DNA from: Candidatus Staskawiczbacteria bacterium
Lineage (GTDB): Bacteria; Patescibacteriota; Minisyncoccia; Minisyncoccales; Staskawiczbacteraceae
NCBI GenBank assembly: GCA_903835075.1
Contig: CAILLM010000008.1
Span: 25,498 to 89,497, forward strand
DNA: 64,000 nucleotides
Reading direction: 5' to 3'
The notes under the pieces are model-generated. The model was not told where the DNA came from and searched no databases. It saw only the letters and a program-made list of their open reading frames with translations. Made by a program: the position numbers and the translations under genes. This document shows positions 3,507 through 61,364 of this stretch, piece after piece (within the stretch, counting starts at the first letter, position 1; every line of letters begins with the position of its first letter).

Positions 3507-4814
3507 ATGGAAAGGTTTAAATTTATTACTCAAAAAAACTTTGACGAGCTCCCAAAAACATCGGGAGTTTATTGCCTTGCCTCGCCGAAGCTAAAGGGCG
3601 AAGGCGGGTTTGAGGTAATCTATATTGGCAAAGCTATAAACATAAAAAGCAGAGTTAAAAACCATTTTCAACAGCCAAGCTACCGCGACAATTTATTTAT
3701 TGATAAAGTTAGTAAAATTGGCTACTTGGAGACTAACTCAGAAATTGAAGCCTTAATTTTGGAAGCAAATTTAATTAAAAAATATCAACCCAAGTTCAAT
3801 GTTGTTTGGAAAGACGATAAAAACTATTTTTACGTAGCCATTACACAAGACAAATGCCCAATAGTTTACATTACTCACCAACCCTTCGGCTCCGCTCAGG
3901 GCAAGCCCAAACTACTCACTACAAACTACTCACTACAAACTAAGTATATTGGGCCGTTTGTTGAGGGGACTGCTCTAAAAAAGACTTTAAAATATTTAAG
4001 GCGAGCATTTCCATATTACACCAGCAAGAAGCACCCTAAAACAAAATGCACATGGTGCCATTTGGGACTATGCCCTGGGCCCCGCCTCTTCGAGGCGAGG
4101 CTCGACTCGCCCACTGGCGAGGCGGCAAACCTAAGAAAAGAATACAAAAATAATCTTAAAAAATTAGCCCTAATCTTGCAAGGAAAGCGAAGTGCCGTGC
4201 TTAATTCTCTAAAGCGAGAAATGGCACAATTCTCAAAAGAAAGTAAATTTGAAGAAGCCGGAAAAATCCGCGACCGAATTTATAATCTGCAACAAATTAT
4301 GGCCCACAGCATTGTCATTGAAAATTCCAAAGCCACTCAAGAATCTAATGTTGGAGATATTTTTGCAAAAGTTGAATGTTATGACATTTCAAACATACAA
4401 GGGAAATTTGCAACCGGCTCTATGGTAGTTTTTGTAAATGGAGAGTCAGACAAAAGCCAATACAAAAAATTCAAAATTCGCTTAATGGACACACCAAATG
4501 ACATTGCCATGTTAAGAGAAGTTTTGGAAAGAAGATTCAATCACCCAGAATGGAAATATCCTGAGGTAATTTTAATTGATGGCGGGAAAGCTCAATTAAA
4601 CATTGCCATAAAGGTTAAGAATAAACTGCCCATTAAAATTATTTCAATTGCAAAAGGCAGGCAAGAACTGTTTATTGAAGGCCAAAAAAATCCAATACCG
4701 CTAAAATTATTACCACAAAATATTTACAACTTAATTTTGCAATTAGACAGCGAAGCTCACCGCTTTGCAATCACATATCATAAAAAATTAAGAAAGAAAA
4801 ATTTATTGCAGTAA
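3507..4814 (+). CDS. uvrC: Excinuclease ABC subunit C (UvrC) homolog, short form lacking the C-terminal (HhH)2 domain
   Basis: GIY-YIG motif (GVYCL...VIYIGKAINIKSRVKNHF), Cys-rich region (KCTWCHLGLC), UVR-like helix (AGKIRDRIYNLQQI) and the RNase H-like UvrC endonuclease domain (ECYDISNIQGKFATGSMVVFVNG...YKKFKI). Ends at 435 aa. Carries GC-rich in-frame insertions (PFGSAQGKPK; CPGPRLFEARLDSPTGEAANL). Confidence 0.75.
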   Translation: MERFKFITQKNFDELPKTSGVYCLASPKLKGEGGFEVIYIGKAINIKSRVKNHFQQPSYRDNLFIDKVSKIGYLETNSEIEALILEANLIKKYQPKFNVVWKDDKNYFYVAITQDKCPIVYITHQPFGSAQGKPKLLTTNYSLQTKYIGPFVEGTALKKTLKYLRRAFPYYTSKKHPKTKCTWCHLGLCPGPRLFEARLDSPTGEAANLRKEYKNNLKKLALILQGKRSAVLNSLKREMAQFSKESKFEEAGKIRDRIYNLQQIMAHSIVIENSKATQESNVGDIFAKVECYDISNIQGKFATGSMVVFVNGESDKSQYKKFKIRLMDTPNDIAMLREVLERRFNHPEWKYPEVILIDGGKAQLNIAIKVKNKLPIKIISIAKGRQELFIEGQKNPIPLKLLPQNIYNLILQLDSEAHRFAITYHKKLRKKNLLQ

Positions 4815-5485: not shown

Positions 5486-7489
5486 ATGGCAAAGTCAAAG
5501 TTTCCTAAACTTTCTCAATGGAAACAACTTTTTAAAATATTGAAAAAACCCGAAAAAATCTTTTTTTTGATTTTTCTGGTGTTGTTTATTGCATCTGCAA
5601 CTTACCTTGTAGTTAATTTTTATATAAATAATACAAAAGCGGTCCCTGCATTTGGCGGAACATATACAGAAGGCGTTGTTGGTCAGCCAAGATTCATAAA
5701 TCCTATTTATGGAGAAACAAATGATGTTGATAGAACTTTAATAGACCTCACCTATTCCGGATTAATGACTTATGATAAAGATGGAAAACTTATAAATGAC
5801 CTAGTAAAAAACTATCAAATTTCCGACAATGGGAAAACCTATACCTTCCAATTAAAAGACAAACTTTACTGGCAAGATGGCTCTCCCCTTACCGTTGATG
5901 ATGTTATCTACACAATAAAAACAATTCAAAATTCCGACTATAAAAGTCCTTTAAGAGCAAATTGGTTAAACGTAGATGCCAAAAAAATTTCTGACATATC
6001 ATTTGCGTTGTCCTTGGGGTCACCTTACAACTCTTTTCTAGAAAACTGTACAATAAAAATAATCCCTCAACATATTTGGAAAAATATTTTGCCTGAAAAC
6101 TTTGCTCTTTCACCGCACAACCTACAACCAGTTGGCTCGGGGCCATATACTCTTTCTGATATACGAGAAAATAAAGACAGCTTTATAACCAACCTAGCGC
6201 TTTCCGTAAATCATAAATATTATAGTAAGCTGCCATATATATCAGAAATTAATTTCAGGTTTTTTGGTAATAAAAATGATTTAATTAGCGCAGCCAACCA
6301 AAAAACAATTGATGGGTTCCCTGTTTCAGACTTAGAAAATAATGAAGCTTTGGCGGAAAAAGATGTCCACCAAGGGTGGAATACAAATGAAAAATTCCAA
6401 GTTTATTCTTTCTCACTGCCAAGATATTTTGCAGTATTCTTCAACTTACAGAATTCTAGAATTTTGTCTGATGGCAACATCACGCAAGCACTTAATTATT
6501 CTGTTAACAAGCAAGAACTTGCCCAAAATGTATATAATAAATTTAAAATAAAAACACCTGTTGTTAATTCCCCTATTTTGCCAGATTATTTTGGCTATTC
6601 ACAACCAAAAACAACTTACGACTACAATGTAGACTCTGCAAACAAACTTTTGGATAAATCTGGATACAAAGATTCAGGAGCTGGGCAAAGGACAAAAGCA
6701 AACAACAAAAAACCAGCATTTCAGTTTACTGGCTACTTGTCTACAAAATCTAAAGGTAATGAAGTTATAGAGCTTCAAGGATGTCTTTCTAGGCTAGACA
6801 GCAGCTTTAAAACTCTTTTGCAAACAGACCCAAGTGGGAAATATGGCGCAGGGACAGAAGCGGCTGTAACGGCATTTCAAAAAAAATATTTGCCAGGAGT
6901 CCCAACCACAGGAGAAACAGGAACTGGCACAAGAAAAGCTCTAAACACAGCTTGTTTTATAGCTCAAAGTAGCTCTTTGCCCCTACAATTCACATTAACC
7001 ACAATCAACCAACCACAAATGGTTTACACTGCCAATCTTTTAAAAAATTATTGGCAAAAAGTTGGGGTGATAGTTACAATAAAAACCGTAGAGCTTTCAG
7101 AATTAAAAAATGTTATTAAAAATCGTGACTACGATGCCCTACTTTATGGTGAGGCCTTTGGAAGTATCCCTGATTTATATCCATTTTGGCATTCCACACA
7201 AATAAATGACCCAGGGCTGAATCTTTCTGAATATCAGAACACAAACGCTGACCAATTATTAAAAGATGCCCGGGAAACGCTGGACAACAATGTGAAAGCT
7301 CAGAAATATGGAATTCTACAAGACACAATACTTTCGGGCTCTCCTGCACTCTTCTTATACAACCCCGACTATCTCTACTGGGCCTCACAAAAAGTGAAAG
7401 GAATTGATACAATTAAAATAGCTGACCCAGCTAAAAGATTTGAAAATATTCAAAATTGGTATATTAACACACATAGAACATGGAAATAA
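5486..7489 (+). CDS. ABC-transporter substrate-binding protein, family 5 (oligopeptide/nickel OppA/DppA-like), N-terminal membrane anchor, with an inserted putative peptidoglycan-binding segment
   Basis: SBP_bac_5-type N-terminal region (GGTYTEGVVGQPRFINPIY...LTYSGLMTYDKDGKL...YTFQLKDKLYWQDGSPLTVDDV). Internal GKYGAGTEAAVTAFQKKYLPGVPTTGETGTGTRKALN resembles PG_binding_1. Confidence 0.7.
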   Translation: MAKSKFPKLSQWKQLFKILKKPEKIFFLIFLVLFIASATYLVVNFYINNTKAVPAFGGTYTEGVVGQPRFINPIYGETNDVDRTLIDLTYSGLMTYDKDGKLINDLVKNYQISDNGKTYTFQLKDKLYWQDGSPLTVDDVIYTIKTIQNSDYKSPLRANWLNVDAKKISDISFALSLGSPYNSFLENCTIKIIPQHIWKNILPENFALSPHNLQPVGSGPYTLSDIRENKDSFITNLALSVNHKYYSKLPYISEINFRFFGNKNDLISAANQKTIDGFPVSDLENNEALAEKDVHQGWNTNEKFQVYSFSLPRYFAVFFNLQNSRILSDGNITQALNYSVNKQELAQNVYNKFKIKTPVVNSPILPDYFGYSQPKTTYDYNVDSANKLLDKSGYKDSGAGQRTKANNKKPAFQFTGYLSTKSKGNEVIELQGCLSRLDSSFKTLLQTDPSGKYGAGTEAAVTAFQKKYLPGVPTTGETGTGTRKALNTACFIAQSSSLPLQFTLTTINQPQMVYTANLLKNYWQKVGVIVTIKTVELSELKNVIKNRDYDALLYGEAFGSIPDLYPFWHSTQINDPGLNLSEYQNTNADQLLKDARETLDNNVKAQKYGILQDTILSGSPALFLYNPDYLYWASQKVKGIDTIKIADPAKRFENIQNWYINTHRTWK

Positions 7490-8636: not shown

Positions 8637-8826
8637 CTTCGCTATAGCTCAGCGTAAACAAATAAAATCTCAATAAAATTAAATTAAAAAAATTAAACAA
8701 TTAAAAATGATTACACAAAGACACCCAGCCAGACCTGGCGGGTACAATAGAAAACCTTTGTCCCCCGCTGGGGCCAAAGAAGGACCACGGGCATATCCCG
8801 CTTGGCCAGAAAATAACCCCGCACCC

Positions 8827-10533
8827 ATGCCTACCGGCAGGCAGGCAATAAAAGTTTGGCGCGGAGATAATTCACTAAAAATAATTCCTCTTGGAGGATG
8901 CGAAGAAGTTGGAAGAAACATGACCTGTTTTGAATATGGACAAGATATTGTTCTGTTAGATATGGGCCTACAATTTCCAGAAGAAGATATGCCAGGAATT
9001 GATTATGTAATTCCAAATGTAGAATATTTAAAAGGAAAAGAAAAAAATATTCGTGGAGTTATATTTTCACACGGGCACTTAGACCACATTGGAGCAGCCG
9101 CAATTTTATTGCCAAAATTGGGCAACCCCCAAATAATTGGCAGGCCACTAACCCTTGAGATGGTAAAGCACCGCGTTGAAGATTTGCAAAGAGGCGCTTC
9201 AAAAAAATTGAAAACTCTTTACATAGAAAATTTGCAACAAAAAATAAATTTGGGATCTTTTACGCTTTCATTTTTCCAAATTGAGCACGCCATTATGGAC
9301 GCTGTTGGAGTAATTTTGGAAACACCAGATGGAACAATAATCCACCCTGGCGACTGGACAATTGAAAAAAATCCACAAGGCAGACCAGAAATTGATTATG
9401 GGCATTTAGCTAACATAAAAAGACCAACAATTTTAATGTTGGAATCTTTGGGGGCCACAAATTCCAAAGAACCTGTTACTGAAGAGGAAATGTTGAATAA
9501 CCTTTATAATTTAATCAACAAAGCACCTGGCAGAATTATTATCGCTACATTTTCTTCACAAATTCAAAGAATAAGACAAATTTTAGAGCACGCGGCAAAA
9601 ACCAACAAAAAAGTTGCGCTAGATGGTTTTTCAATGAAGTTAAACATAGAGCTTGCAACAAAACTTGGCTACATTAAAATTCCTAAAGGAGTAATAATTC
9701 CAATAGATAAAATTCATACAGTACCAGACAACAAAGTTGTTGTAATTTGCACAGGAGGACAAGGTGAAGAAATGGCAGCACTTTCAAGAATTGTTGCCGG
9801 CAACCACAGATTTATTAAAATCAAGAAAGAAGACACCGTTGTCTTTTCCTCATCGGTTATCCCAGGAAACGAGCGCACGGTTCAAAGAGTAAAAGACAAC
9901 CTTTACAGACAAAGCGACAATGTTTACCATTCAGATATTATTGATGTTCACATTTCAGGACACAGCAACATAGATGGAATAAAGCACATGCTAAGAGAAA
10001 TTAAGCCAGATTATTTTATCCCTGTTTATGCTAACCACTACTTCTTAAAAGAAGCTTCAAAAATTGCTCAAGGAATGGGCTTTAGAAAAGACAGAATTTT
10101 TGTGCCAGACAATGGTTCAATTATAAAATTCACCCAAAATAGTGCAGAAATTTTGAAAGAAAAGGTTCCTGTAAATTATGTTTTTGTTGACGGTTTGGGA
10201 GTTGGCGATGTTGGAGAAATTGTTTTACGTGACAGACAAATGTTGGCAGAAGATGGAATGTTTGTTATTGTTACTGTAATAGACAAAAGAACCGGGCAAG
10301 TGCGTGGCAGCCCAGATATTATTTCCCGCGGATTTATTTATTTGCGAGAATCTAAAGATTTGCTTGCTCAAACACGTAAAAAAGTTATTGAAATTGTAGA
10401 TAAATCTGCTGGTCACGGAGGAGCTATAAACTGGACCTATGTTAAAGATGAAATAAGAAACAAAGTTGGCGACTTCTTAGCGACCAAAACCTCCCGCAGA
10501 CCAATGATTTTACCAGTTGTTATTGAAGTTTAA
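8827..10533 (+). CDS. rnj: Ribonuclease J (metallo-beta-lactamase / beta-CASP RNase)
   Basis: LKIIPLGGCEEVGRNMTCFEY, HGHLDHIG and full RNase J architecture. The track start at 8707 adds a GC-rich 40-aa extension with no homology; the in-frame ATG at 8827 (MPTGRQAIKVWRGDNSLKIIPLGG) is the more plausible start, still upstream of the conserved N-terminus. Confidence 0.8.
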   Translation: MPTGRQAIKVWRGDNSLKIIPLGGCEEVGRNMTCFEYGQDIVLLDMGLQFPEEDMPGIDYVIPNVEYLKGKEKNIRGVIFSHGHLDHIGAAAILLPKLGNPQIIGRPLTLEMVKHRVEDLQRGASKKLKTLYIENLQQKINLGSFTLSFFQIEHAIMDAVGVILETPDGTIIHPGDWTIEKNPQGRPEIDYGHLANIKRPTILMLESLGATNSKEPVTEEEMLNNLYNLINKAPGRIIIATFSSQIQRIRQILEHAAKTNKKVALDGFSMKLNIELATKLGYIKIPKGVIIPIDKIHTVPDNKVVVICTGGQGEEMAALSRIVAGNHRFIKIKKEDTVVFSSSVIPGNERTVQRVKDNLYRQSDNVYHSDIIDVHISGHSNIDGIKHMLREIKPDYFIPVYANHYFLKEASKIAQGMGFRKDRIFVPDNGSIIKFTQNSAEILKEKVPVNYVFVDGLGVGDVGEIVLRDRQMLAEDGMFVIVTVIDKRTGQVRGSPDIISRGFIYLRESKDLLAQTRKKVIEIVDKSAGHGGAINWTYVKDEIRNKVGDFLATKTSRRPMILPVVIEV

Positions 10534-15206: not shown

Positions 15207-15236
15207 AACAGCCCTTCGCGGGGCTGTTTTTGTTTA
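15207..15236 (+). terminator. Rho-independent terminator after rpsR
   Basis: CAGCCCttcgcgGGGCTG followed by TTTTTGTTT. Confidence 0.7.
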
Positions 15237-15371
15237 GCGAGGTAGTGAATTCGTAGCGTACCCTGCAGGCAATTTTGCAAGGTTCGCCGAAGGCGAAAAA
15301 TTGCCGAAGCCTGAGTGAGTTGCACGCTGGCGCAACGAACGCTAGCGAAGAATTTACTGTCGAGCGATAAA
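15237..15371. repeat. GC-rich ~135-bp intergenic element with imperfect terminal inverted repeats (AGTGAATTCGTAGCG ... CGCTAGCGAAGAATTTACT), related to the dispersed GC-rich repeat family
   Basis: Abrupt GC rise. Ends are reverse-complement-similar. TGAATTCGTAG is also present at 57784 and a related form at 57255. The GCGAAGG/CGAAG cores resemble the elements at 16420-16480 and 59991-60028. Confidence 0.4.
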
Positions 15372-16507: not shown

Positions 16508-17617
16508 CTATTTTGTAAATTTAAAAGTGGAAAGGAAGCCTTGAAAATCTGCTATATCAAATGCTTGTGCCTCACTTTCTTTAGCAAACAAGGGGCTTGA
16601 AAAAGCTATTGTTACCAAAATTTTATTTGGTTTTTCTATATAAATATTGTAACCCTTATAAAAACCGTAAGGCTCTTGATCCGTTGGTCTTGCCACTCTC
16701 CCAGAAACAAATGTATTAAAAACCGCAGGGAAGCCATTAATATTAGTTTTTTGATAAGATTGATTATTTTTTGCTATATCATCAAGTGTATATCCTTTTT
16801 GAGTTGCAATTTCAAGTTGAGAAGTAGAATTACATTCTGGCGTAAGGTCAAAACAGGTTTGTTTTTGAGTTATTCTTATTGTTGGCATAAAATTACCATC
16901 TTCTTGAGTTGAAATATCTCCCCATTTTAAAGGATACTTAAAAGTAAATCCATATTTTTCATCTGAGTATATTTTCCACCCAGCGGTTTGGTCAATGGTA
17001 TTAGTTTTATTTTCTCTTTTAAAAACACTGACGTTTATATTTTTTTCTAAATTTGGTTGCATTTTTTTCCACTGAATTGAAAGGTCACCGCTTGGCATTG
17101 GAGTGACGGTAAATAAAACATCTCCTTTTTTAAATTGTTTATCTGTGTTATCTGCACCATATGAATCAAAAATAATGTCCATTGGACTTGTAGAATCTTT
17201 TATCGCAACAGCTGCATTAATTCTTGTTAAAGTTTGGAAGCCATCAATATTAACATATGTATATACGTGGCCATCGGCACCATCAACAATAGAAAATTTA
17301 TACATCCAATCTTCATTTGGCGGTGCAGATTCTTCAAATTGATAAGCTCCATACCACGAAAATGGTGCTTTAGTTGCAGATGACAAGCTATTTTGGATAT
17401 TCTTATTTTCAGAAGCCTGTTTTGAAATTAAAAAATATTGCCAGGCAAAAACTCCGCCAAAAACAATACCTGTAAATAATACAATTATTAAAATACCCAC
17501 CCAAGTAGAAATTTGTTTTTTCTGACCTGCCCTGAGCTTGTCGAAGGGTTTAGGCATTATTGGTGGCGTTGGCTGAACCGGCGAATTCATATTTTCTTGA
17601 TTTATATTTGGCTCCAT
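16508..17617 (-). CDS. Hypothetical membrane-anchored extracellular protein
   Basis: N-terminal TM helix (WVGILIIVLFTGIVFGGVFAW), no recognised domain. Contains the in-frame GC-rich insertion encoding PFDKLRAGQ at 17526-17550. Confidence 0.4.
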   Translation of the reverse strand: MEPNINQENMNSPVQPTPPIMPKPFDKLRAGQKKQISTWVGILIIVLFTGIVFGGVFAWQYFLISKQASENKNIQNSLSSATKAPFSWYGAYQFEESAPPNEDWMYKFSIVDGADGHVYTYVNIDGFQTLTRINAAVAIKDSTSPMDIIFDSYGADNTDKQFKKGDVLFTVTPMPSGDLSIQWKKMQPNLEKNINVSVFKRENKTNTIDQTAGWKIYSDEKYGFTFKYPLKWGDISTQEDGNFMPTIRITQKQTCFDLTPECNSTSQLEIATQKGYTLDDIAKNNQSYQKTNINGFPAVFNTFVSGRVARPTDQEPYGFYKGYNIYIEKPNKILVTIAFSSPLFAKESEAQAFDIADFQGFLSTFKFTK

Positions 17618-20107: not shown

Positions 20108-20276
20108 CACTATAATTTTTAATTATTATGTTATTATATTACAAGTGAGGATAAAGTAAATAAGCCACAGTTTATTTACTTTTGACGAACGCAGTAATAT
20201 ATTCATTCAAGTTGCACCTACTGCGGGCAGGCAGGTAAAAAAAGACCGCAGATAAGACCTGCGGTAGTCGCTAAAA

Positions 20277-21085: not shown

Positions 21086-21115
21086 GTAGTTTTTTGGCTC
21101 GAGCCAAAAAACTAC
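21086..21115. repeat. 30-bp perfect palindrome GTAGTTTTTTGGCTCGAGCCAAAAAACTAC, copy 1
   Basis: Self-complementary. An identical copy lies at 21709-21738. The two copies bracket the 21112..21651 gene. Confidence 0.85.
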
Positions 21116-21651
21116 GATATTCCAAACCTAAATTTAACCTTATCCTGGTTGTCTATAAAATCTAACAACCCAAACCTAACATATTTTTCAATTTTAAATA
21201 ATTTTACAAAATCATCAATTTCCTTCTTACAATCATAAGGATATAAAAAAATACTCTCCTGCAACTCATAAAACCCACCCATTTTTAATCTATAATTAAG
21301 AGCGTTTCGGCCCTTTCTGCATTTATTGGGTATATCAAATGCCACCATACGCCATTTGCCGTCCCATTTTTCTTTTTTATTACTAAGCCTCCTAAATCTA
21401 AAGTTAATGGCTCGCAGAAAACCCCTCTCGGTTAAAGAAACCAAAATCGATCCTTCATAGCTTTTTTTGTTTTCAATTAACTTTTGCCTCTTAAGATCAT
21501 AAACTGCAGAATTTAATTGTTTTGAAGTAAAATTATGAACATCTCTTAACACTTCATTTAAAATAAAAAACCTGCCGTCTCCGCGGGCGCCAACTTTTTG
21601 CTCGGTTTGGTAATAAATGCTCCACAATATTTCATCTAAAATCTCCCTCAT
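21112..21651 (-). CDS. PaaX-like / Cas2-fold-like putative transcriptional regulator (N-terminal winged-helix region plus a WDGKWRMVAFDIP...R..R..L...L...GF..LQESIF module)
   Basis: The motif KWDGKWRMVAFDIPNKCRKGRNALNYRLKMGGFYELQESIFLYP resembles the PaaX central domain, which shares the Cas2-like fold. At 179 aa it is shorter than canonical PaaX. GC-elevated. Confidence 0.4.
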   Translation of the reverse strand: MREILDEILWSIYYQTEQKVGARGDGRFFILNEVLRDVHNFTSKQLNSAVYDLKRQKLIENKKSYEGSILVSLTERGFLRAINFRFRRLSNKKEKWDGKWRMVAFDIPNKCRKGRNALNYRLKMGGFYELQESIFLYPYDCKKEIDDFVKLFKIEKYVRFGLLDFIDNQDKVKFRFGIS

Positions 21652-21708: not shown

Positions 21709-21738
21709 GTAGTTTTTTGGCTCGAGCCAAAAAACTAC
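21709..21738. repeat. 30-bp perfect palindrome GTAGTTTTTTGGCTCGAGCCAAAAAACTAC, copy 2
   Basis: Identical to 21086-21115. Confidence 0.85.
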
Positions 21739-28731: not shown

Positions 28732-29013
28732 TAATTATTTGTGCGAAGAATAGTTCACGCTTCGCGATTAAAAATATTTAAAAATTTTAACTATTAACAC
28801 AAAATACCCTTTTCTTTAGGGCATTTATCCCTCATCTTTTAAATAAAAAAATTTCGGCAATAAAAAATAACCGAGATGAGGGTTTTCGTTTTTCTAGAGT
28901 AAAGTTTGTGTGGCCACTGCTTTTTTATAGCCCGTTGATCAGACAGGCCTTAGTAAATGTATGTTATTCTATTTTTTAAAAAGTGTCAATACCTGCCTGC
29001 CGGCAGGCAGGGT
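28732..29013 (-). promoter_or_regulatory. Long (~280 nt) structured rpoB leader with a candidate promoter (TTGACA-N17-TAACAT on the minus strand, near 28960-28990) and a CCTGCCTGCCGGCAGGCAGG palindrome at 28992-29011
   Basis: Inverted repeats CCCTCATCT...AGATGAGGG, CCCTAAAGAAAAGGG and GCGAAG...CTTCGC in the leader. The 20-bp perfect palindrome sits just upstream of the -35. Confidence 0.35.
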
Positions 29014-31164: not shown

Positions 31165-33222
31165 TTATTCCTGATGATTTCTTTGCCATTCTGAAAATTT
31201 TCTTAATTCCTCTTCCGTCATGCTAAGTAATTTCAAAAAATCTTGCTCCTCAAGAATTGTAATGCCCAGTTCAAGTGCACGCTCGGCCTTGCTTCCTGGT
31301 TCTGATCCTACCACAACATAGCTTGTTTTAGAAGAAACAGATTCTGCTGTATCACCACCCAATTCTCTTATTTTGGCCTTGGCTTGGTCACGCGACATTG
31401 ATTCTAAGCTTCCTGTTAAAACAAAGGTTTTGTCTGCAAACTTCTGGTCGCCCTTTTTATGTTCTGGAGCTATTATTTTTATATGTTTCTCTAATTTTTC
31501 TATAAACCTTAAATTATCTTTGTCAGCAAACCATTCGTAAATAGACTTTGAAACTACTGGCCCAATATCTAAAATTGCCTCAAAATTTTCCAATTCAGCT
31601 TCTTTTATTTTTTTAATACTTGAAAAATGTTTTGCCAAATCAATTGCAGTTTCTTCGCCAACATTTCTAATACCTAAAGCATAAATAAATTTTGCCAAAG
31701 GCACCTCACGTTTTTCTTGAATTGATTTAATTAGATTTTCTGCAGATTTTTCGGCAAACCGCTCTAAACTTTTAACATCAGCTTCTTTTAATTCAAACAA
31801 ATCAGATGGGTCATTAACCAAACCTTCGTCAAATAGTCTATCAATAATTTTAGGCCCTAGGCCATCTATATTAAATGCAGTTCTTGAAACAAAGTGATAA
31901 AAATTTCTTCTTTGTTTGGCAATACATTTTTGATTAGGACATCTTAAAATCGCCTCCCCCTCTAGTTTTACAAGTTTGGCCGAACAGCTAGGACAATTAG
32001 CTGGCATTTTAAAGTTTTTTTCGTGACCGGTTCGTAATTCTGGCAAAACTTTTATAATATTTGGGATAACATCACCTGCCCTACCCACAATTACAGTGTC
32101 TCCAATTTTTAAACCAAGTCTTTCAATTTCATCTTCATTGTGCAAAGTTGCTCTTGTTATGGTAATTCCCGTAACTCCAACTGGTTCCAACACTGCTACG
32201 GGCGTAATTGCCCCAGTCCTGCCCACTTGCACCTTAACATCAAGCACTTTAGTAGTCGCTTCAGCTTGAGGAAATTTATAAGCTATGGCTCCTCTGGGCG
32301 CCTTTCCTACAACACCCAAATTATCAAATATTTTATTATTATTTATTATCACTACAACACCGTCAATTTCATAATCTAATTTTTCTCTTTCTTTTATCCA
32401 ATATTCGCGAAATTCAAAAACTTCTTTTAGCGTTTTACAAAATTTATTATGCTTATTTGTTTTGAACCCCAAATCTTTTAAAATTTTGTGCTTTTCTTCA
32501 TGAGTTATTGCCTCGTCAGTAATTAAATCATAAGCAAAAGAATCTAGCTTTCTTCCTGCTGTTATTTTTGGGTCTAACTGCCTCACCGAACCTGCGGCAA
32601 TATTTCTTGGATTGGCATAAACCGGCAAACCTTTTTCTTTTTGAATTTTATTTATTCTGGCAAACTCCTTTTTTGTTATGAAAACCTCTCCCCTAACAAT
32701 CAAGTCTTTTTTACTTCCCGCCTGTGCAGGCAGGTTGATTGTCAAAGGAATCGCTTCAACTGTTTTTAAATTTTGGGTAATATCTTCACCAACTGTGCCG
32801 TCACCTCTTGTAGCGCCAGTAATAAAATTTCCATTTTTATAAATTAATTCAATTGCCAAGCCATCAATTTTTAATTCGCAATAATAATTAACGTCCTGCC
32901 TTTCTTTTTCGGGAACTAGTTTCATAAATCTTTCTTGCCAATCTTCCATATCTTCTTTTGAAAAAGCGTCGTTAAAAGAAAGCATTCTATGAGAATGTTT
33001 TATTTTTTTAAATTCTTTTAATGGTTTTCCACCGATTCTTTGCGTTGGCGAATCTGCAGTTATTAATTCAGGGCATTCTTGCTCTAAATCAAAAAGTTCT
33101 TTTTTCAAAGAATCTAAAGCTGAGTCAGAAATTTCTTGCCTATCTAATACGTGGTAAAGATAACGATGATGGTTTATCGTTTCCCTTAGTTTTTTTATTC
33201 TTTCTTCTATTTCTTTTTTCAT
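31165..33222 (-). CDS. ligA: NAD-dependent DNA ligase LigA
   Basis: KxDG adenylation motif (ELKIDGLAIEL), OB-fold, Zn-finger Cys cluster (CPSCSAKL...CPNQKC), HhH and BRCT regions. 685 aa. Confidence 0.9.
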   Translation of the reverse strand: MKKEIEERIKKLRETINHHRYLYHVLDRQEISDSALDSLKKELFDLEQECPELITADSPTQRIGGKPLKEFKKIKHSHRMLSFNDAFSKEDMEDWQERFMKLVPEKERQDVNYYCELKIDGLAIELIYKNGNFITGATRGDGTVGEDITQNLKTVEAIPLTINLPAQAGSKKDLIVRGEVFITKKEFARINKIQKEKGLPVYANPRNIAAGSVRQLDPKITAGRKLDSFAYDLITDEAITHEEKHKILKDLGFKTNKHNKFCKTLKEVFEFREYWIKEREKLDYEIDGVVVIINNNKIFDNLGVVGKAPRGAIAYKFPQAEATTKVLDVKVQVGRTGAITPVAVLEPVGVTGITITRATLHNEDEIERLGLKIGDTVIVGRAGDVIPNIIKVLPELRTGHEKNFKMPANCPSCSAKLVKLEGEAILRCPNQKCIAKQRRNFYHFVSRTAFNIDGLGPKIIDRLFDEGLVNDPSDLFELKEADVKSLERFAEKSAENLIKSIQEKREVPLAKFIYALGIRNVGEETAIDLAKHFSSIKKIKEAELENFEAILDIGPVVSKSIYEWFADKDNLRFIEKLEKHIKIIAPEHKKGDQKFADKTFVLTGSLESMSRDQAKAKIRELGGDTAESVSSKTSYVVVGSEPGSKAERALELGITILEEQDFLKLLSMTEEELRKFSEWQRNHQE

Positions 33223-44878: not shown

Positions 44879-44938
44879 TTCTATTTATTTATTATACCTG
44901 CCCGTCTACAGGCAGGCAACTAATTAGTTTGATATGCA

Positions 44939-48103: not shown

Positions 48104-48685
48104 CTATTTATGAAAGCCTAGGTCTGCTGGGTTATTTCCGCCAGAAATTAAGGTAATTTTCCCGCCTCTAGACTCAAATTCTTTTCTTAATTTTTTAACT
48201 TCAACTGACAAATTTACTGTTTCTTCCCCTATTTCATATTTAACATGACCTTTTGACCAATATTCTACAACTAATTTACTGTCACCAAAAATCTTACCAG
48301 CCCTGAGTCGCGTCGAAGGGTCTTTCATTTCTTTTAATGCTAATTCCAAGGCTTTTTTACAAGCAAGTAATTCTCCATAATTATTTGTAACACCATGCCC
48401 CAAATTTTCTCGTAAAAAACTTTTCCCATTTTTATCAGCCACCTGAATTTCAACTCCTTCGCCACTCCCCGTGCCCGCGTCAAAATAAATTCCGTCTTCA
48501 ACAGCAATATTTTTTATTTTATAATCAGCCCCTGCATTTAGCCAAGCCTCGGCCGCCTCTTCTGTTTCAAAACCTTTAAATTTTGCGCCATTTTTACCTG
48601 CAACAATTTCTTGGCATTCTGGCCAGTTATCAGTTATCCCCTGCTTGCCATCAACTAAATATGCATAATATTTTCTTTTTGCCAT
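48104..48685 (-). CDS. rnhA: Ribonuclease HI with N-terminal hybrid-binding (caulimovirus viroplasmin-like) domain
   Basis: N-terminal YYAYLVDGKQGITDNWPECQEIVAGKNGAKFKGFETEEAAEAWL; RNase H core DAGTG...TNNYGELLACKKAL...GDSKLV. Contains the in-frame GC-rich insertion PSTRLRAGK. Confidence 0.75.
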   Translation of the reverse strand: MAKRKYYAYLVDGKQGITDNWPECQEIVAGKNGAKFKGFETEEAAEAWLNAGADYKIKNIAVEDGIYFDAGTGSGEGVEIQVADKNGKSFLRENLGHGVTNNYGELLACKKALELALKEMKDPSTRLRAGKIFGDSKLVVEYWSKGHVKYEIGEETVNLSVEVKKLRKEFESRGGKITLISGGNNPADLGFHK

Positions 48686-54794: not shown

Positions 54795-54860
54795 TTTTAA
54801 AATTTAATTATTTTTATTTAAGTTTATGCCTGCCAAAATAAAAGTCAATAATTTTTGTTT
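54795..54860 (-). promoter_or_regulatory. Promoter module copy B (minus strand TTGACT-N16-TAAACT) upstream of 54502..54792
   Basis: Near-identical duplicate of 54241-54300. Confidence 0.5.
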
Positions 54861-54893
54861 ACATTGAGCCTGCCGAAATGATAATATAAACAC

Positions 54894-57158
54894 ATGATTA
54901 CATTGGCGACCAAGATAGAGGAAATTCCTAAAGTTGGCGTAGCTTACGCAAAAAAGTTAAAGAAGTTTGGCATAAAAACTGTGCAGGATTTGCTTTTTTA
55001 TTTTCCTGCGCGATACGACGACTTTTCAGAAATAATTTCAATTAAAGAAGCCAAGCAAAGATTGGGTGAAACTGTTTGCGTGCAAGGGCAAATTATCCAA
55101 ATGGAGAGCTCTAACTCTTTTAGAAAATTTATGAGTTTAACGCAAGTCATTATTCAGGATGACACTGGAGAAATTGGCATTATTTGGTACAATCAGCCTT
55201 ATTTAGCAAAGTCTTTAAAAGAAGATGATTTTATTTGCGTGGCAGGGAAAATAAGCTTAGGCAAAGAAGGCATTTATTTTGCTTCACCAACTTATGAACG
55301 CATAAATTATATTGGCGAAAACGAAGAACTAACTCACACAGGCCGAATTGTACCGGTTTATGCCGAAACCCGCGGCGTTACTTCCCGCTGGTTGCGATAT
55401 GTTATAAAACCATTGCTTTACAGGTTTTGTGAACAAATACAAGAATCTTTACCAAAAGAAATAATTAAAAAATACAAATTTTTGCCAATTCAGGAAGCTG
55501 TTTGGCAACTGCATTTTCCAGAATCTTTTGAACATGCCGATGCTGCCAAAGCAAGATTTTCTTTTGAAGAACTTTTTTTAATCCAGCTGAATGTTTTAAA
55601 AGAAAAAATTAAATTAATGGTAAAAAAAGCACATGCTTGCCCAATGGACAATGATTTGCTTAAAAAATTTACCGATTCTTTACCGTTTCAACTAACAGAT
55701 TCTCAAAAAAAATGCGCCTATGCAATTTTAAAGGATTTAGAAAAAACTGTTCCAATGTCGCGGTTGCTTGAAGGCGATGTTGGAAGTGGCAAAACAGTTG
55801 TAGCGGCAATGGCCGCGCTAAACGTAGTCAAAAGCGGGCATGCCGCCTCCGCCAAAGGCTACGGCGAGCCAAGGCAAGTAGCTTTTATGGCTCCAACGGA
55901 AATTTTGGCAAAACAACATTTTAAGTCGATTTCTGAAATGGTAAAACCGTTTGGGGTTACAACCGGCATGTTAACTGGGAAAGATGCTAGAATTTGCAGA
56001 AGCGGAGAAGTCTTTGAGGTTTCCAAAAAAAGTTTACTGGGTGATTTGGAGAATGGCCAGATTGATATTATTATCGGAACTCACTCACTGATACAAAAAG
56101 GAGTAGAATTTTCCCGCCAGGGGCGGGATCCCGCTGGGGCGGGAAAAGATTTGGCTTTAGTAATTTTAGACGAGCAACATCGGTTTGGCGTGGAACAGCG
56201 TGACCACTTAATAAAAAATAAAAAGATTGTCCCCCATTTGCTTTCAATGACCGCCACCCCAATTCCAAGAACTTTGGCTTTAACTGCTTATGGTGATTTA
56301 GATTTATCTTTGATTGATGAAATGCCTGCCAACAGAAAAAAAGTTAAAACAATTATTGTTGAACCACAACAGAGAAAACAAGCTTATGAGTTTATAAAAA
56401 AAGAAGTTTCCGAAGGCAAGGGCGTTTTTGTTATTTTTCCTAAAATAGAAAGCGCTGCTTCAAAACTTGCTGAAACAATTAAAGAAAAAGGCCCAATTAC
56501 AGGGTCAGCAGGATTTGCTGTACAAAATTACCCTACTGCCCCACTTTCTTTGTCATCTTTGGCCATAAACGAAGTTAAATCCTTAAAGGAAGAATACGAA
56601 AGATTGTCAAAAGAAGTTTTCCCGGATTTACGAATTACAATGCTTCACGGAAAAATGAAAGCCCCCGAAAAGGAACGCATTATGTTAGATTTTAAAAAAG
56701 GTGAGATTGATATTTTGCTTTCCACTTCAGTTGTTGAAGTTGGAGTTGATGTTCCCCGCGCCACTATAATGATGATTGAGGGAGCCGAACGTTTTGGGCT
56801 TTCACAACTTCACCAATTCCGCGGACGCGTTGGCCGAAGTGACATGCAATCTTATTGCTTTTTGTTCACCACAGACCCAAGTATGTTAAACAGAAAACGG
56901 TTAAAAGCATTGGTGGAGTCTAACAATGGTTTTGAATTAGCAGAAAAAGATTTGGAAATTAGGGGCCCGGGCAGTTTATATGGCACACAGCAATGGGGAA
57001 TTCCCGACATGGCAATGCAAGGTTTAAATAATATATTTTTGGTTGAAAAAACGCGAGCAGCTGCAAAAGAAATTTTAGAAAAAGATCCAAAACTAGAAAA
57101 GTACCCCGAGCTAAAAGAGCGCCTAAAAGAATTCCAAAAAAGAATTCACTTTGAATAA
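54894..57158 (+). CDS. recG: ATP-dependent DNA helicase RecG
   Basis: N-terminal wedge domain, helicase motifs (GDVGSGKT, DEQHRFG, C-terminal RecG motifs). Contains an in-frame GC-rich nested palindrome at 56109-56147 encoding FSRQGRDPAGAGKD. Confidence 0.9.
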   Translation: MITLATKIEEIPKVGVAYAKKLKKFGIKTVQDLLFYFPARYDDFSEIISIKEAKQRLGETVCVQGQIIQMESSNSFRKFMSLTQVIIQDDTGEIGIIWYNQPYLAKSLKEDDFICVAGKISLGKEGIYFASPTYERINYIGENEELTHTGRIVPVYAETRGVTSRWLRYVIKPLLYRFCEQIQESLPKEIIKKYKFLPIQEAVWQLHFPESFEHADAAKARFSFEELFLIQLNVLKEKIKLMVKKAHACPMDNDLLKKFTDSLPFQLTDSQKKCAYAILKDLEKTVPMSRLLEGDVGSGKTVVAAMAALNVVKSGHAASAKGYGEPRQVAFMAPTEILAKQHFKSISEMVKPFGVTTGMLTGKDARICRSGEVFEVSKKSLLGDLENGQIDIIIGTHSLIQKGVEFSRQGRDPAGAGKDLALVILDEQHRFGVEQRDHLIKNKKIVPHLLSMTATPIPRTLALTAYGDLDLSLIDEMPANRKKVKTIIVEPQQRKQAYEFIKKEVSEGKGVFVIFPKIESAASKLAETIKEKGPITGSAGFAVQNYPTAPLSLSSLAINEVKSLKEEYERLSKEVFPDLRITMLHGKMKAPEKERIMLDFKKGEIDILLSTSVVEVGVDVPRATIMMIEGAERFGLSQLHQFRGRVGRSDMQSYCFLFTTDPSMLNRKRLKALVESNNGFELAEKDLEIRGPGSLYGTQQWGIPDMAMQGLNNIFLVEKTRAAAKEILEKDPKLEKYPELKERLKEFQKRIHFE

Positions 57159-58390: not shown

Positions 58391-59980
58391 TCACTTTCGA
58401 ATCTTCTCAGTGACCCAAAATCCCATGTATTTGCCTAGCATCAAACGAATTTGGGCGTCCAAGGCGGGCAGCGAACCAAAGACAATTAATGTAACTGGTA
58501 AAAATATCCATTGCAAAAATACTGAAGCGCGCTTTCCAATTCTTTTATACCATTTTATGGTTTTTGGAATTGGTGGCAAAAGCATTGTGCTTAAAATTGC
58601 TGAAACCATCATGCCTGCCAAAGAAACAGTCATAATTTGCCCAGTTAAAATGGGCAAATTAAAAGACAAAATTGTAAAATTAAATTGATGCCCACCCAAA
58701 AGAATTGGCAACCAGCCGAGCATAAAAAGCAAAAGTGAAGCTGTTGCCCAAGACCAAAATCCATCTAAAATTGTGTAAATGTGACCAATTTTTTCGCGCA
58801 AAGGAATTTTTTTGTTTTGAATAAATCCAAACATTATATACGGAATTTCGGCACAACCCCAAGCCCAACGTTTTTGTTGTTTGTATTGATTGATTGCTGT
58901 TCTCCAAACACTTTTTGCCATAACAGCATCCATGGAAGCCAAATAATACATTGGCACAACTCTGTACTTTGCATCATAATTTAAATATGCACGCCAGAAA
59001 ATTCGCGAGTCATCGGAAACAACATTTGCAGGATACCCCACTTCAAAAAATACTTTTGCGGGAGTGGAATGCGAAGAGTATGTTGTAAGTTTTTCTGAGC
59101 GCTCTTGCTGAATCATTTGCCAAAAAGTATTTGAAGTTGAAACAACTCTGGCAAAAGCAGAAGCTGTCCAAATGTTGTTGTTGTAAACAGGAATTGGCTG
59201 ATAGCTGGCACTCTCTGGGTTTTCTTCTGTTAAATATAAATAAGTCAGCCGTGCAAAATATTGCGGAAAAACTTTTGTATCTATGTCAAAAGTAGAAATT
59301 AAAATATTTTCGTAAGGAATTCTTAATTCATCAATTATTTTTTCTTTTACTTGCTTACCTGCATATGCGGTATTTGAACCCTTACCTGCGATTTCACCCT
59401 CTATATTGTCTGGGTGCACAACAACCATAAATTTATAAAATTCGTGAGAATGTTTATTGGCAATAATTCTGGCTTGTTTTTCAAAGTTTTCACCAGCCCT
59501 GGCCTCAACCGCCAAAACAATAATCATTTTTTCTTTGGGATAATCACACTTGATTAAGGTTTCCAAACTTTCTTCTATCAAATCTTCTTCTTCTTGGTAT
59601 GTTGGTAAAATAATTACATGATAAATATTTTTCCAGCTTGCCCTGAGCGACCTGCCCTGAGTGAAGTCGAAGGGAGTCGAAGGGTTTTTCAATTCTTTCA
59701 ATTCTTTTAGCCAATCAACCTTCATATTTTTTTTAACTCTAAAATATCCTACAACTTGGTGCAAAGAAAAATAAAAAACTCTAAAAAGATAGTAAAAACA
59801 AAAACAAATAATAAAAATAGCAATTTGTGCTGGAAACAACCACGACAAAATAAGCACGCCAAAAAGCGTGCTTAAACTCATAACACCGGGAATAATCTCA
59901 AAAAATCTGTAAAGTCTTCTGTCTTTCGGATTTTTTAAGTCCGAAGCTTTTGAGATGTCTAAATAATCTTTTTTCTCCAT
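58391..59980 (-). CDS. Processive family-2 glycosyltransferase (cellulose/chitin-synthase-like integral membrane GT2)
   Basis: N-terminal TM helices, GT-A catalytic region with D..D, and the Q-x-x-R-W motif (QQKRWAWG) followed by C-terminal TM helices. Contains the in-frame GC-rich insertion FDFTQGRSLRAS at 59641-59690. Confidence 0.65.
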   Translation of the reverse strand: MEKKDYLDISKASDLKNPKDRRLYRFFEIIPGVMSLSTLFGVLILSWLFPAQIAIFIICFCFYYLFRVFYFSLHQVVGYFRVKKNMKVDWLKELKELKNPSTPFDFTQGRSLRASWKNIYHVIILPTYQEEEDLIEESLETLIKCDYPKEKMIIVLAVEARAGENFEKQARIIANKHSHEFYKFMVVVHPDNIEGEIAGKGSNTAYAGKQVKEKIIDELRIPYENILISTFDIDTKVFPQYFARLTYLYLTEENPESASYQPIPVYNNNIWTASAFARVVSTSNTFWQMIQQERSEKLTTYSSHSTPAKVFFEVGYPANVVSDDSRIFWRAYLNYDAKYRVVPMYYLASMDAVMAKSVWRTAINQYKQQKRWAWGCAEIPYIMFGFIQNKKIPLREKIGHIYTILDGFWSWATASLLLFMLGWLPILLGGHQFNFTILSFNLPILTGQIMTVSLAGMMVSAILSTMLLPPIPKTIKWYKRIGKRASVFLQWIFLPVTLIVFGSLPALDAQIRLMLGKYMGFWVTEKIRK

Positions 59981-59990
59981 GATATAAACT

Positions 59991-60028
59991 GGCTTGCCCT
60001 GAGCGAGCGAAGCGAGTCGAAGAGTGGC
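59991..60028. repeat. Intergenic full-length copy of the GC-rich element: GGCTTGCCCTGAGCGAGCGAAGCGAGTCGAAGAGTGGCC
   Basis: The termini CTTGCCCTGAG...GTCGAAG(G) match the in-frame copies in uvrC, tsaD, rnhA, the GT2 gene and the 16508 gene. Confidence 0.7.
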
Positions 60029-60089
60029 CCTACCGGGATTTGAACCCGGGTTTTATGCTTGAAAAGCACGCGTCCTAGACCAGGCTAGA
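60015..60089 (-). tRNA. tRNA-Glu (anticodon TTC)
   Basis: Minus strand: acceptor GGCCCTA/TAGGGCC, D-arm TCGTCTAGCCTGGTCTAGGAC typical of tRNA-Glu, anticodon loop TTTTCAA, T-arm CCGGGTTCAAATCCCGG, discriminator A. Confidence 0.7.
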
Positions 60090-60161: not shown

Positions 60162-61364
60162 ATGCATAAAAGCATGAAAATATTAGCCATAGAAACATCT
60201 TGTGATGACACGGGAGTTGCTGTTTTAGAGGTTTCTAAAACCAGTAATTTTAAAGTTTTATCTAATGTCATTGCCTCACAAATAAAAGTCCACCAAAAAT
60301 ATGGCGGAGTTTTTCCCATGATGGCGAAGCGTGAACACCAGCGCAATTTAGTTCCTGTTTTTATGCGCGCGCTAAAACAGGCTAAATTGCTGAAAATTTC
60401 TAATTCCCAATTTCTAATTTCTAAAACAGAAAAAATAAAAGAAATCTTAGGGCGGGAACCGGAACTTTATAAAAAATTAGTTTCTTTTCTAAAAAAATAT
60501 GATAAGCCAAAAGTAGATTTTATCTCGGTTACAAATGGCCCGGGGCTAGAACCATGTCTTTGGGTTGGAGTTAATTTTGCAAAAGCCTTGTCTTACGTTT
60601 GGGATATTCCAGTAATTCCTGTTAACCACATAGAGGGGCATATTTTGGTAAACTTTCTTAATCCTAGACCCCATGCCCTAAATCCTAAATCCTTCCCCGC
60701 TATTGCTCTAGTTGTTTCTGGGGGGCATACACAAATTATTTTAGTTAGAAAACCCTTCGGCGCGGCTCAGGGCAAGTTGTTCAGTTATGAAATTTTAGGT
60801 GAAACCAGAGATGACGCTGCTGGTGAATGTTTTGATAAATGCGCAAAAATTTTAGGATTGGGTTATCCTGGCGGACCAATTATTTCAAAAATGGCTGAAG
60901 GCATAAAACCAACAAACACCCTCCCCCGCCCAATGTTTAATACAAAAGATTATGATTTTAGTTTTTCAGGATTAAAAACAGCCGTGTTATATGCCGACAG
61001 AAAGGTTGCAAACAAAAATATAAATTATAAGCGCGCGATGTCTGCTGAAGTTCAGCAAGCAATAATAGATGTTTTAATTAAAAAAACTACAAAAGCAATT
61101 AAAGATTTTGGTGCTAAATCTTTAATTTTAGGGGGAGGAGTTTCAGCGAATAAAGAACTGCGAAAACAATTTAAGGCCTGCCTACTCGGGCAGGAAAAAC
61201 TCATAGACACAGAATTAATTTTCCCCGAACCAAAACTATCAACAGACAACGGGTTAATGATTGCAGTAACAGGATATTTTAACAGAAGAAATAGCCTTCA
61301 ACCCGGCTCAGTCCAAGCCAAAAAATGGGAAAAAATTGTTGCAAACGGAAACTTAAGAATTTAA
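60162..61364 (+). CDS. tsaD: tRNA N6-adenosine threonylcarbamoyltransferase TsaD (Kae1/YgjD)
   Basis: MKILAIETSCDDTGVAVL (canonical start probably the ATG at 60174), metal-binding HIEGHI, ASKH-fold. Contains a ~50-aa insertion and the in-frame GC-rich element PFGAAQGKLF at 60753-60776. Confidence 0.85.
   Translation: MHKSMKILAIETSCDDTGVAVLEVSKTSNFKVLSNVIASQIKVHQKYGGVFPMMAKREHQRNLVPVFMRALKQAKLLKISNSQFLISKTEKIKEILGREPELYKKLVSFLKKYDKPKVDFISVTNGPGLEPCLWVGVNFAKALSYVWDIPVIPVNHIEGHILVNFLNPRPHALNPKSFPAIALVVSGGHTQIILVRKPFGAAQGKLFSYEILGETRDDAAGECFDKCAKILGLGYPGGPIISKMAEGIKPTNTLPRPMFNTKDYDFSFSGLKTAVLYADRKVANKNINYKRAMSAEVQQAIIDVLIKKTTKAIKDFGAKSLILGGGVSANKELRKQFKACLLGQEKLIDTELIFPEPKLSTDNGLMIAVTGYFNRRNSLQPGSVQAKKWEKIVANGNLRI

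Follow-up and report, generated by a model that had tools for sequence, protein, structure and literature searches.

Palindromic CCTGCC...GGCAGG dyads in a Candidatus Staskawiczbacteria genome segment are probably copies of a small REP-like insertion element

Do the palindromic CCTGCC...GGCAGG motifs that lie close to several housekeeping genes of a Candidatus Staskawiczbacteria bacterium (Parcubacteria, candidate phyla radiation, CPR) form the operator of a regulon, or are they copies of a small repeated sequence? The question is raised by a stretch of 64,000 nt with a GC content of about 35%, called the window below, in which an initial annotation had listed such dyads near the genes for RNase J, FtsK, RpoB and a PilN-like protein and had interpreted them as a shared operator. 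We conclude that the dyads are probably members of a small family of insertion elements resembling the repetitive extragenic palindromic (REP) elements, and not the operator of a regulon. The alternative offered in the same annotation, another small repeat family, is supported by the evidence of insertion and recurrence described here.

Pfam searches confirmed RNase J, FtsK, RpoB, a DUF1189 protein, PilM, RecG and FtsW/RodA in the window; LigA, type IV pilus genes and TsaD were also confirmed. The window rpoB is 96-97% identical to that of metagenome-assembled genomes of Candidatus Staskawiczbacteria. For comparison we used 80 related rpoB loci (loci are cited by L-numbers), namely the 50 closest and 30 more distant ones, with 0.83 Mb of sequence searched in the closest relatives. 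Alignment of the whole region to relatives at the nucleotide level was too noisy for an unbiased listing of indels.

All of the dyad sequences initially listed are present, with coordinates that slip by 0-3 bases. The palindrome upstream of rpoB lies exactly where it had been placed, at 28992-29011. The RNase J core CCTACCGGCAGGCAGG lies at 8830-8845 instead of 8829-8844, within a full 20-mer, CATGCCTACCGGCAGGCAGG, at 8826-8845; the stretch upstream of ftsK starts at 20218 and not at 20221; the pilus dyad occupies 44897-44916 rather than 44896-44920; and GCCTGCC half-sites, of which one had been reported at 54850-54868, lie at 54828-54834 and 54868-54874. What had been overlooked is that the first three sites are copies of one 20-bp unit, and that two further diverged copies are present, one in ligA and a possible one in tsaD.

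The basic unit is the perfect 20-bp palindrome CCTGCCTGCCGGCAGGCAGG. A second form, strand-asymmetric and 21-22 nt long, reads C-C(C/A)TGCCTACCGGCAGGCAGG-C (also written C-CATG/CCTG-CCTACCGGCAGGCAGG-C), and diverged forms measure 16-18 bp. When aligned to a single 20-mer, the RNase J, ftsK and rpoB sites match at 18/20, about 17/20 and 20/20 positions. The word GGCAGGCAGG occurs exactly four times in the window against 0.05 expected from dinucleotide content; with at most one mismatch it gives 10 matches against 1.47 expected, a number reached in 0 of 100 shuffles, and CCTGCC occurs 47 times against 17.2 expected. Searching the window and the 80 loci for palindromes of 16, 18 or 20 bp with 2-4 mismatches returned 28 overlapping matches at about 18 distinct places, whereas block shuffles returned 0-2 matches. 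Copies appeared in this way in L001, L012, L017, L024, L034, L035 (three copies), L048 and L049. The window has 4 to 6 copies of the unit. For the 50 closest rpoB loci the same mismatch-tolerant search gave about 12 places, and for the 30 more distant loci it gave none. Folding of the unit as a hairpin gives -5.5 to -9 kcal/mol.

The copy upstream of rpoB follows the DUF1189 stop codon by 2 nt and precedes a conserved rpoB -35 box by 2 nt. When nine genomes were aligned over this region, only the window showed the palindrome, as a clean insertion of 20 bp; promoter and leader are conserved, and the promoter boxes TATTGACA-N17-TAAGAT/TAACAT align in seven of the nine sequences. No palindrome was found at this place in any of the 80 related loci, including L001, L026 and loci whose rpoB is 96-97% identical. 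Seven independent assemblies of this population, which differ in sample and assembler, have the window copy in identical form, and the copy is therefore no artefact of assembly. All seven keep it, and a search for presence/absence variation in the source population found none. Within the rpoB 5' leader of about 230 nt (28732-28960, - strand) lie a hairpin of terminator type, CGGTTATTTT..ACCGAAATTTTTT, and three blocks conserved across relatives (TGTCTGATCAACGGG, AAGCAGTGGCCAC and TTTACTCTA), features that point to an attenuator or leader RNA; the leader has no match in Rfam.

The dyad assigned to the probable start of RNase J is located inside the coding region. Homologues share the sequence MITQ(K/R)HPA..., and comparison with them places the true start at ATG 8707. 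The inserted sequence is missing from a 96%-identical homologue (P0001/L309), with no target duplication. Residues 1 to 40-60 of RNase J are hypervariable across about 120 homologues (window 8707-8880), and these N-termini are built from GC-rich insert peptides such as PTGRQA, LPAQAG, PSFAKASEGQ, APEGEPRP and PAGPKGY. Since it is hypervariable and holds several kinds of insert peptides, the N-terminal extension is a tolerated landing zone.

Upstream of ftsK the copy reads CCTAC-TGCGGGCAGGCAGG, with a degenerate left arm and an intact right arm. The orthologous sequence of L001 preserves terminator and promoter without the GGCAGGCAGG segment. The ftsK promoter (about 20135-20190) contains a segment of about 49 nt found in the window only, which splits an ancestral -35 (TTGAAT) from a conserved TATAAT; a new TTTACT-16-TATAAT pair lies within this segment. 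The LPAQAG residues of LigA are missing from L002, L003, L005, L007, L009, L012, L013, L014, L023, L024, L049 and L050, and other GC-rich inserts occupy the same loop in other relatives. The tsaD candidate falls in a region of small TsaD indels (KACLLGQEKL versus KKA--SQE--) with no clean insertion. The GCCTGCC half-sites were not found upstream of recG in the closest genome, L307, and are probably not members of the family.

Table 1. Positions in the window of the unit copies, of adjoining promoters and of other GC-rich repeats.
Feature	Position	Strand	Remarks
Asymmetric variant CATGCCTACCGGCAGGCAGGCA	8826..8847	+	21-nt in-frame insertion (MPTGRQA) in RNase J N-terminal extension
Degenerate or half copy CCTACTGCGGGCAGGCAGG	20217..20235	+	Between terminator of upstream gene and ftsK promoter
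rpoB promoter TTGACA-17-TAACAT	28961..28989	-	Abutted by palindrome; conserved in relatives
Perfect 20-bp palindrome CCTGCCTGCCGGCAGGCAGG	28992..29011		DNA hairpin -9.0 kcal/mol, z -3.4
Diverged 18-nt copy, coding strand CCTGCCTGCACAGGCGGG	32717..32734	-	In-frame insertion (LPAQAG) in variable LigA loop
Promoter-like TTGCCT-17-TATAAT of pilus-operon gene	44891..44919	-	Contains diverged copy; conserved in L307
Diverged copy CCTGCC-CGTCTACA-GGCAGG	44897..44916		16/20 versus unit; -6.2 kcal/mol, z -3.3
Two direct GCCTGCC half-sites	54828..54874	+	Upstream of recG
Possible diverged copy CCTGCCTACTCGGGCAGG	61177..61194		Inside tsaD; -6.5 kcal/mol; membership uncertain
Copies of second GC-rich family	3882-3903, 17526-17548, 48300-48320, 59639-59684, 59995-60030, 60752-60779		

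Insertions were also found in genes of the relatives. The L017 rpoB gene has gained the 21-mer CCATGCCTACCGGCAGGCAGG, identical to the window copy in RNase J; it lies in frame in a variable loop and adds PMPTGRQ, residues that 12 relatives are without; an 18-nt GC palindrome is present in the same variable loop of L012 rpoB, a few bases from the L017 insertion point. The recG gene of L307 contains the perfect 20-mer inside a 21-nt insert (KPNLPAG). The same recG loop of the window holds a different GC-rich insert of 36 nt (GHAASAKGYGEP, 55835-55870), and a second window insert, of 33 nt (SRQGRDPAGAG, with CCCGCC...GGCGGG dyads), lies at 56112-56144; both are in frame and neither is present in L307 recG. 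Origin of the palindrome by inverted duplication of native GRQ-coding recG sequence was not supported by the window recG. A unit copy is in frame at the N-terminus of FtsK in L035. In the phage-like contig L123, the 20-mer lies in the variable loop of a tRNA-Met, for which ARAGORN returned 92 nt when the unit was present and a normal tRNA of 72 nt when it was removed. For four other loci in which a tRNA-loop insertion was suspected (L083, L139, L217 and L235), ARAGORN gave no confirmation whether the unit was kept or taken out, which leaves L123 as the only case.

Comparison of empty and filled orthologous places showed that the boundaries of the unit are precise, and no target-site duplication was found upstream of rpoB, in L017 rpoB, in RNase J or in the L123 tRNA-Met. 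Inserts in coding regions are multiples of three (18 or 21 nt) and lie in variable loops or at termini. Optional in-frame insertion into tolerant regions, as expected for a selfish palindrome, was thus observed in RNase J, ligA, L017 rpoB and L307 recG. A further 21-nt unit copy (RAYRQAG), at about 5420-5439 of L098, a contig of 36% GC, is apparently in frame in the zinc-ribbon region of a protein that is TnpB-like by eye only.

The unit is not restricted to this lineage. The pattern CNNGCCTRCCGGCAGGCAGG was found at 100 sites in 68 stretches of a viral collection and at 127 sites or more in at least 120 metagenome stretches, many of them from groundwater and sediment, giving a total of at least 227 sites in at least 188 stretches; among the matches listed, 89 metagenome stretches have less than 50% GC. 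A composition-matched control palindrome gave six single sites and 0 perfect palindromes. Two forms dominate, the perfect palindrome and CCTGCCTACCGGCAGGCAGG. As a C is conserved on each side of the latter (61% and 73%), the asymmetric form is a strand-asymmetric 22-mer; it shows no bias relative to gene orientation (8 versus 15). The unit is nested in its own centre in L199, L206, L208, L267, L200 and L266, and forms head-to-tail 21-bp arrays in L144, L102, L143 and L048, with at least 10 units in L144. Larger hairpins carry the unit at their tip in some cases, and in others imperfect direct repeats flank it. Direct flank repeats of at least 8 nt accompany 8.9% of copies versus 1.8% of random positions, and inverted ones 4.5% versus 1.0%, the control positions being mostly coding in both cases.

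The 18-bp form was found in 25 stretches, mostly GC-rich, at a level near chance. Cultured phages (INPHARED) and plasmids (PLSDB) gave weak matches in GC-rich organisms and no family, and a literature search with the sequence strings of the unit and for REP elements in Patescibacteria returned nothing relevant. We looked for a neighbour gene shared by the element-bearing loci; phage structural genes, DNA methylases and ABC ATPases cluster there, none of them specific. The phage contig IMGVR_UViG_3300025106_000007 (L144, L102), of HK97 type (terminase, portal, capsid, protease) and 54% GC, bears about 20 unit copies between structural genes (L144:3916-4142; L102:632-682, 2654-2696, 6696-6770), and the array of at least 10 21-bp units in L144 runs to the end of the stretch. 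Logan contigs L270 and L275 both end 6 bases past the 20-bp palindrome; perfect palindromes of this type break some assemblies.

Could the dyads instead be functional RNA or DNA hairpins (terminators, insulators, mRNA-stabilising stem-loops), selected place by place? Their hairpins are stable, reaching -9.0 kcal/mol as DNA for the perfect copy; the rpoB copy stands directly 3' of the DUF1189 stop codon; several metagenomic copies tip terminator-like hairpins (L252, L158, L181); and the excess of inverted flank repeats given above also fits. However, no T-tract was found after the window copies, and a terminator scan that did call a true terminator at 20265..20245 (- strand) called none of the dyads. 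Rfam detected only tRNAs in the whole window and no RNA family at the dyads. Moreover, the asymmetric variant has no orientation bias relative to transcription, the copies in frame in proteins and the copy in a tRNA cannot be terminators, and independent selection would not yield an identical 20-22-mer in unrelated genomes. We regard this explanation as unlikely.

The operator first proposed, a site for a dimeric transcription factor common to rnj, ftsK, rpoB and the pilus genes, appears less likely still. Such an operator would account for the dyad symmetry and for the promoter-like hexamers that adjoin three of the sites. Palindromic operators such as those of CIRCE/HrcA and parS/ParB are conserved across taxa and stand at orthologous promoters; the unit resembles them as a 16-20-bp dyad whose sequence is common to distant bacteria and of which one copy overlaps a promoter-like pair. 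By contrast, relatives whose rpoB is 96-97% identical do not have the unit at their orthologous rpoB and ftsK promoters. The promoter-proximal placing that had been reported does not hold either, as position and spacing with respect to the -35 and -10 hexamers differ at every site and the RNase J and ligA copies are intragenic. Copies are in frame in ligA, rpoB, recG and ftsK, lie in a tRNA, are nested in themselves and form 21-bp tandem arrays in phages, and the same 20-mer occurs in contigs of 31-71% GC. From the absences at rpoB, ftsK and RNase J, it follows that three of the four dyads lack the conservation across relatives on which the initial annotation had made the operator depend.

The exception is the pilus dyad, which is, among the window copies, the only one conserved in the nearest genome (L307). 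It keeps the length and the outer arms of the unit around a different centre. On the - strand it comprises the last 3 bases of a -35-like hexamer and the entire 17-bp spacer upstream of the pilN-like gene, the classic position of a repressor site, so that window and L307 both read TTG-CCTGCC-N8-GGCAGG-TATAAT on the gene strand. At L307:11144-11163 the arms and both promoter hexamers are conserved, six of the eight central positions differ and the flanks have diverged. The copy is absent in L308, and its exact variant was not found elsewhere in the viral collection. The pilus copy is an old one, in which either selection (on a hairpin or a protein site) or homogenisation has maintained the arms. 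Since the conserved copy fills the spacer of a promoter-like pair, a local regulatory role at the pilus promoter is possible.

A DNA uptake signal, enriched by uptake bias in a naturally competent lineage and often found as inverted pairs like the uptake sequences of Neisseria, would agree with the pilus/competence-type gene cluster of the window, with the inverted pairing, with the copies in the genome-maintenance genes ligA, recG and ftsK and with the sharing of the sequence by related lineages. Known uptake sequences occur about once per kb; four exact and 10 one-mismatch 10-mers in 64 kb are far too few. In addition, the copies arise as discrete insertions of 18-21 nt and not by point mutation, tandem arrays and nested copies would be unexpected, and the unit is found in GC-rich phage contigs, which makes an uptake signal highly improbable. 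We give equally little credit to chance, composition or an assembly or library artefact. In favour of such an origin, GGCAGG on its own is partly explained by the G-richness of coding strands (2.2:1 for hexamers of the same composition), some of the matches to GC-rich contigs, and to plasmids from cultured bacteria of high GC, look random, and a pair of Logan contigs ends just behind the palindrome. Against it, counts of the 10-mer and the 20-mer are far above shuffles and the matched control, the rpoB copy is the same in all seven assemblies, coding inserts keep to multiples of three in variable loops, and copy density depends on the lineage (about 12 places among the nearest 50 rpoB loci, none among the 30 distant ones).

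An insertion element is therefore the reading that we retain, and REPs are the closest known counterpart. REPs are stem-loops of 20-40 bp; some lie within genes for replication and repair, such as that of DNA ligase, and those that have been classified carry an unpaired GTAG or CGTC tetranucleotide at one end (Di Nocera et al. 2013, PMC3733652). Like REPs and their REPIN assemblies, the unit is a short GC-rich stem-loop, present in several copies, mostly intergenic and sometimes clustered; it is tolerated in protein loops, again including DNA ligase, leaves no target duplication and belongs to a lineage with Y1 transposase genes. It differs from the SMAG-type REPs of 22-25 bp and from the GTAG/CGTC families in being tagless and at the lower size limit, and from REPs in general in being a loopless perfect palindrome or a 22-nt asymmetric form. 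Whereas REPINs are head-to-head dimers, the units are single, self-nested or arranged in head-to-tail 21-bp arrays. REPs are mobilised by REP-associated tyrosine transposases (RAYTs), which are IS200-like Y1 enzymes, but the Y1 genes seen here bear other flanking hairpins. A last difference is that the unit is found with identical sequence in many unrelated contigs and phages.

Two other classes of palindromic selfish DNA resemble the unit in behaviour. The Rickettsia palindromic elements (RPEs), reportedly described by Ogata and colleagues in 2000 and mentioned in PMC3733652, are said to be confined to one genus, with RPE-1 measuring about 100-150 bp. They too are palindromic and lie in frame in protein and RNA genes, in surface loops, of a small AT-rich genome; the unit has only 18-22 nt, bears no sequence relation to them and is not confined to a genus. 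The mobile G+C clusters of yeast mitochondria are organellar elements of 30-50 bp with short target duplications, one of which is in frame in var1. As GC-rich palindromic mini-elements of an AT-rich genome, single or tandem and optional between strains, they recall the unit, which is however unrelated in sequence, shorter and without target duplication. A miniature inverted-repeat transposable element derived from a DDE insertion sequence was rejected: there is no target-site duplication, and the IS1595 ends in L308 (GGCTCTAGACTAGCA) are unrelated to the unit.

The unit could spread as a non-autonomous single-strand hairpin element in the manner of REPs and REPINs, mobilised in trans, and selection would then retain only the copies that land in tolerant places. 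Single copies may have been co-opted, the pilus copy as a promoter spacer and the rpoB copy flush with its -35 box. A HUH Y1 transposase (IS200/RAYT-like) is the best candidate for the mobiliser, because its chemistry leaves no duplication and it recognises hairpins, and we propose it only tentatively. Pfam confirmed Y1_Tnp genes in the related genome L017 and in six metagenome loci that bear the element, whereas L030, also a related genome, and the loci L158 and L251 have tblastn matches only; tblastn gave no Y1-like match within the window. In four of the eight element-bearing loci with a Y1 gene, the gene lies 22-313 nt from the unit (binomial P=0.02), a weak proximity statistic. IS200-like Y1 genes with their own flanking repeated hairpins were observed at L017:11921-12655 (GTGAAGTCCGACTTCAC), L268:5935-6606 (TTCCATCCCGGGATGGAA), L208:2429-2953 (ACTCCGGGAGCC...GGCTCCCGGAGT) and L164:506-1204 (GGGACACCCCTTTAAAGGCCTGGCC); these four are REP/RAYT-like units in CPR-type contigs.

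Several observations weigh against a REP-like element. No transposase is linked to the unit, and the Y1 genes examined carry their own, different flanking hairpins. The terminal GTAG/CGTC tag is absent: flank logos of the asymmetric variant show only C at -1/+1, and GTAG appears only within the loop or stem of this variant. From the differing Y1 flank hairpins and the missing tag, it follows that the mobilising enzyme is one that we infer. REPs are normally species-specific, while contigs that range from 31 to 71% GC share the unit unchanged, a distribution that known REP/RAYT systems do not account for. Taxonomy is settled for a minority of the carrier contigs, and unit counts for the source genome cover 64 kb only. 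Finally, the pilus copy keeps its arms while centre and flanks diverge, which fits selection on a hairpin or protein site.

Because identity at 31-71% GC, self-nesting and 21-bp arrays are unexplained by REP/RAYT systems, there is room for a different, possibly templated, mechanism. A more speculative reading, to which we give somewhat less weight than to the Y1 transposase, is that the unit represents the smallest mobile DNA described to date, a hairpin element of 20-22 nt and one conserved sequence that moves into, or is written into, single-stranded loops and break-prone sites in many lineages, CPR bacteria and phages of 31-71% GC among them. Its machinery might be a horizontally shared, hairpin-specific and so far unrecognised Y1/HUH clade, or an enzyme of templated addition that would make the 21-bp arrays.

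The unit belongs to a set of several GC-rich mini-insert families with turnover in the AT-rich genome studied here. A second family, CCCTTCG...GCTCAGGGCAAG, is translated as PF(G/D)xAQGK; at 60752-60779 one of its copies adds 21 nt in frame (GAAQGKL) to TsaD when compared with solved structures of this protein, and the related peptides PFSSAQGK and PFDSTQGK occur in RNase J N-termini of relatives. Two identical 30-bp palindromes, GTAGTTTTTTGGCTCGAGCCAAAAAACTAC (21086-21115 and 21709-21738), bracket a PaaX_M-like gene (21112-21651), and their GGCTC core corresponds to the first bases of the IS1595 terminal repeats in L308.

Unpaired GGCAGG occurs in the window 31 times in sense orientation, presumably that of the leading strand, and five times in antisense orientation, evenly over the three frames. 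It is the commonest of 30 hexamers of the same composition, which have a sense bias of 2.2:1. In relatives the sense to antisense ratio is 323:122, and that of GGGCAGGG is 18:0. The skew is only about three times that of same-composition hexamers, and gene orientation and replication direction are confounded in it. KOPS are FtsK-orienting polar sequences (GGGNAGGG in E. coli). Unpaired GGCAGG looks like a skewed word of this kind rather than a part of the palindrome family: it is G-rich, frame-independent and strand-skewed, and the window FtsK has a gamma domain. It differs in that its skew was measured relative to genes only and not to replication arms. Genes are oriented on the + strand from 3.5 to 15 kb and on the - strand from 15 to 52 kb, converging near 15 kb, close to ftsK, and GGCAGG may be a KOPS-like polar word that points to a possible terminus. 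A segment of 132-136 nt with 51-53% GC (AGCGAGGTAGTGAATTCGTAGCGTACCCTGCAGGCAATTTTGCAAGG...), absent from L309 and L001, lies at this switch in orientation (15235-15371).

For annotation, CCTGCC...GGCAGG dyads should not be scored as regulatory motifs. Together with the sister GC-rich mini-inserts, the unit explains odd peptides (PTGRQA, LPAQAG, AAQGKL) and doubtful starts in CPR proteins. REP/RAYT models leave the spread, self-nesting and 21-bp arrays of the 20-mer unexplained; it should therefore be possible to discover a transposase or other enzyme whose hairpin specificity is fixed, and to test it in vitro. CPR genomes are streamlined and thought to be poor in repeats, yet palindromes of 18-22 nt turn over between relatives with 96%-identical rpoB. 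The family reshapes loops in RpoB, LigA, RecG, FtsK and RNase J, and some of its members lie within promoters or beside them; should the unit indeed be the smallest mobile DNA, its machinery would also supply new peptide segments to essential proteins.

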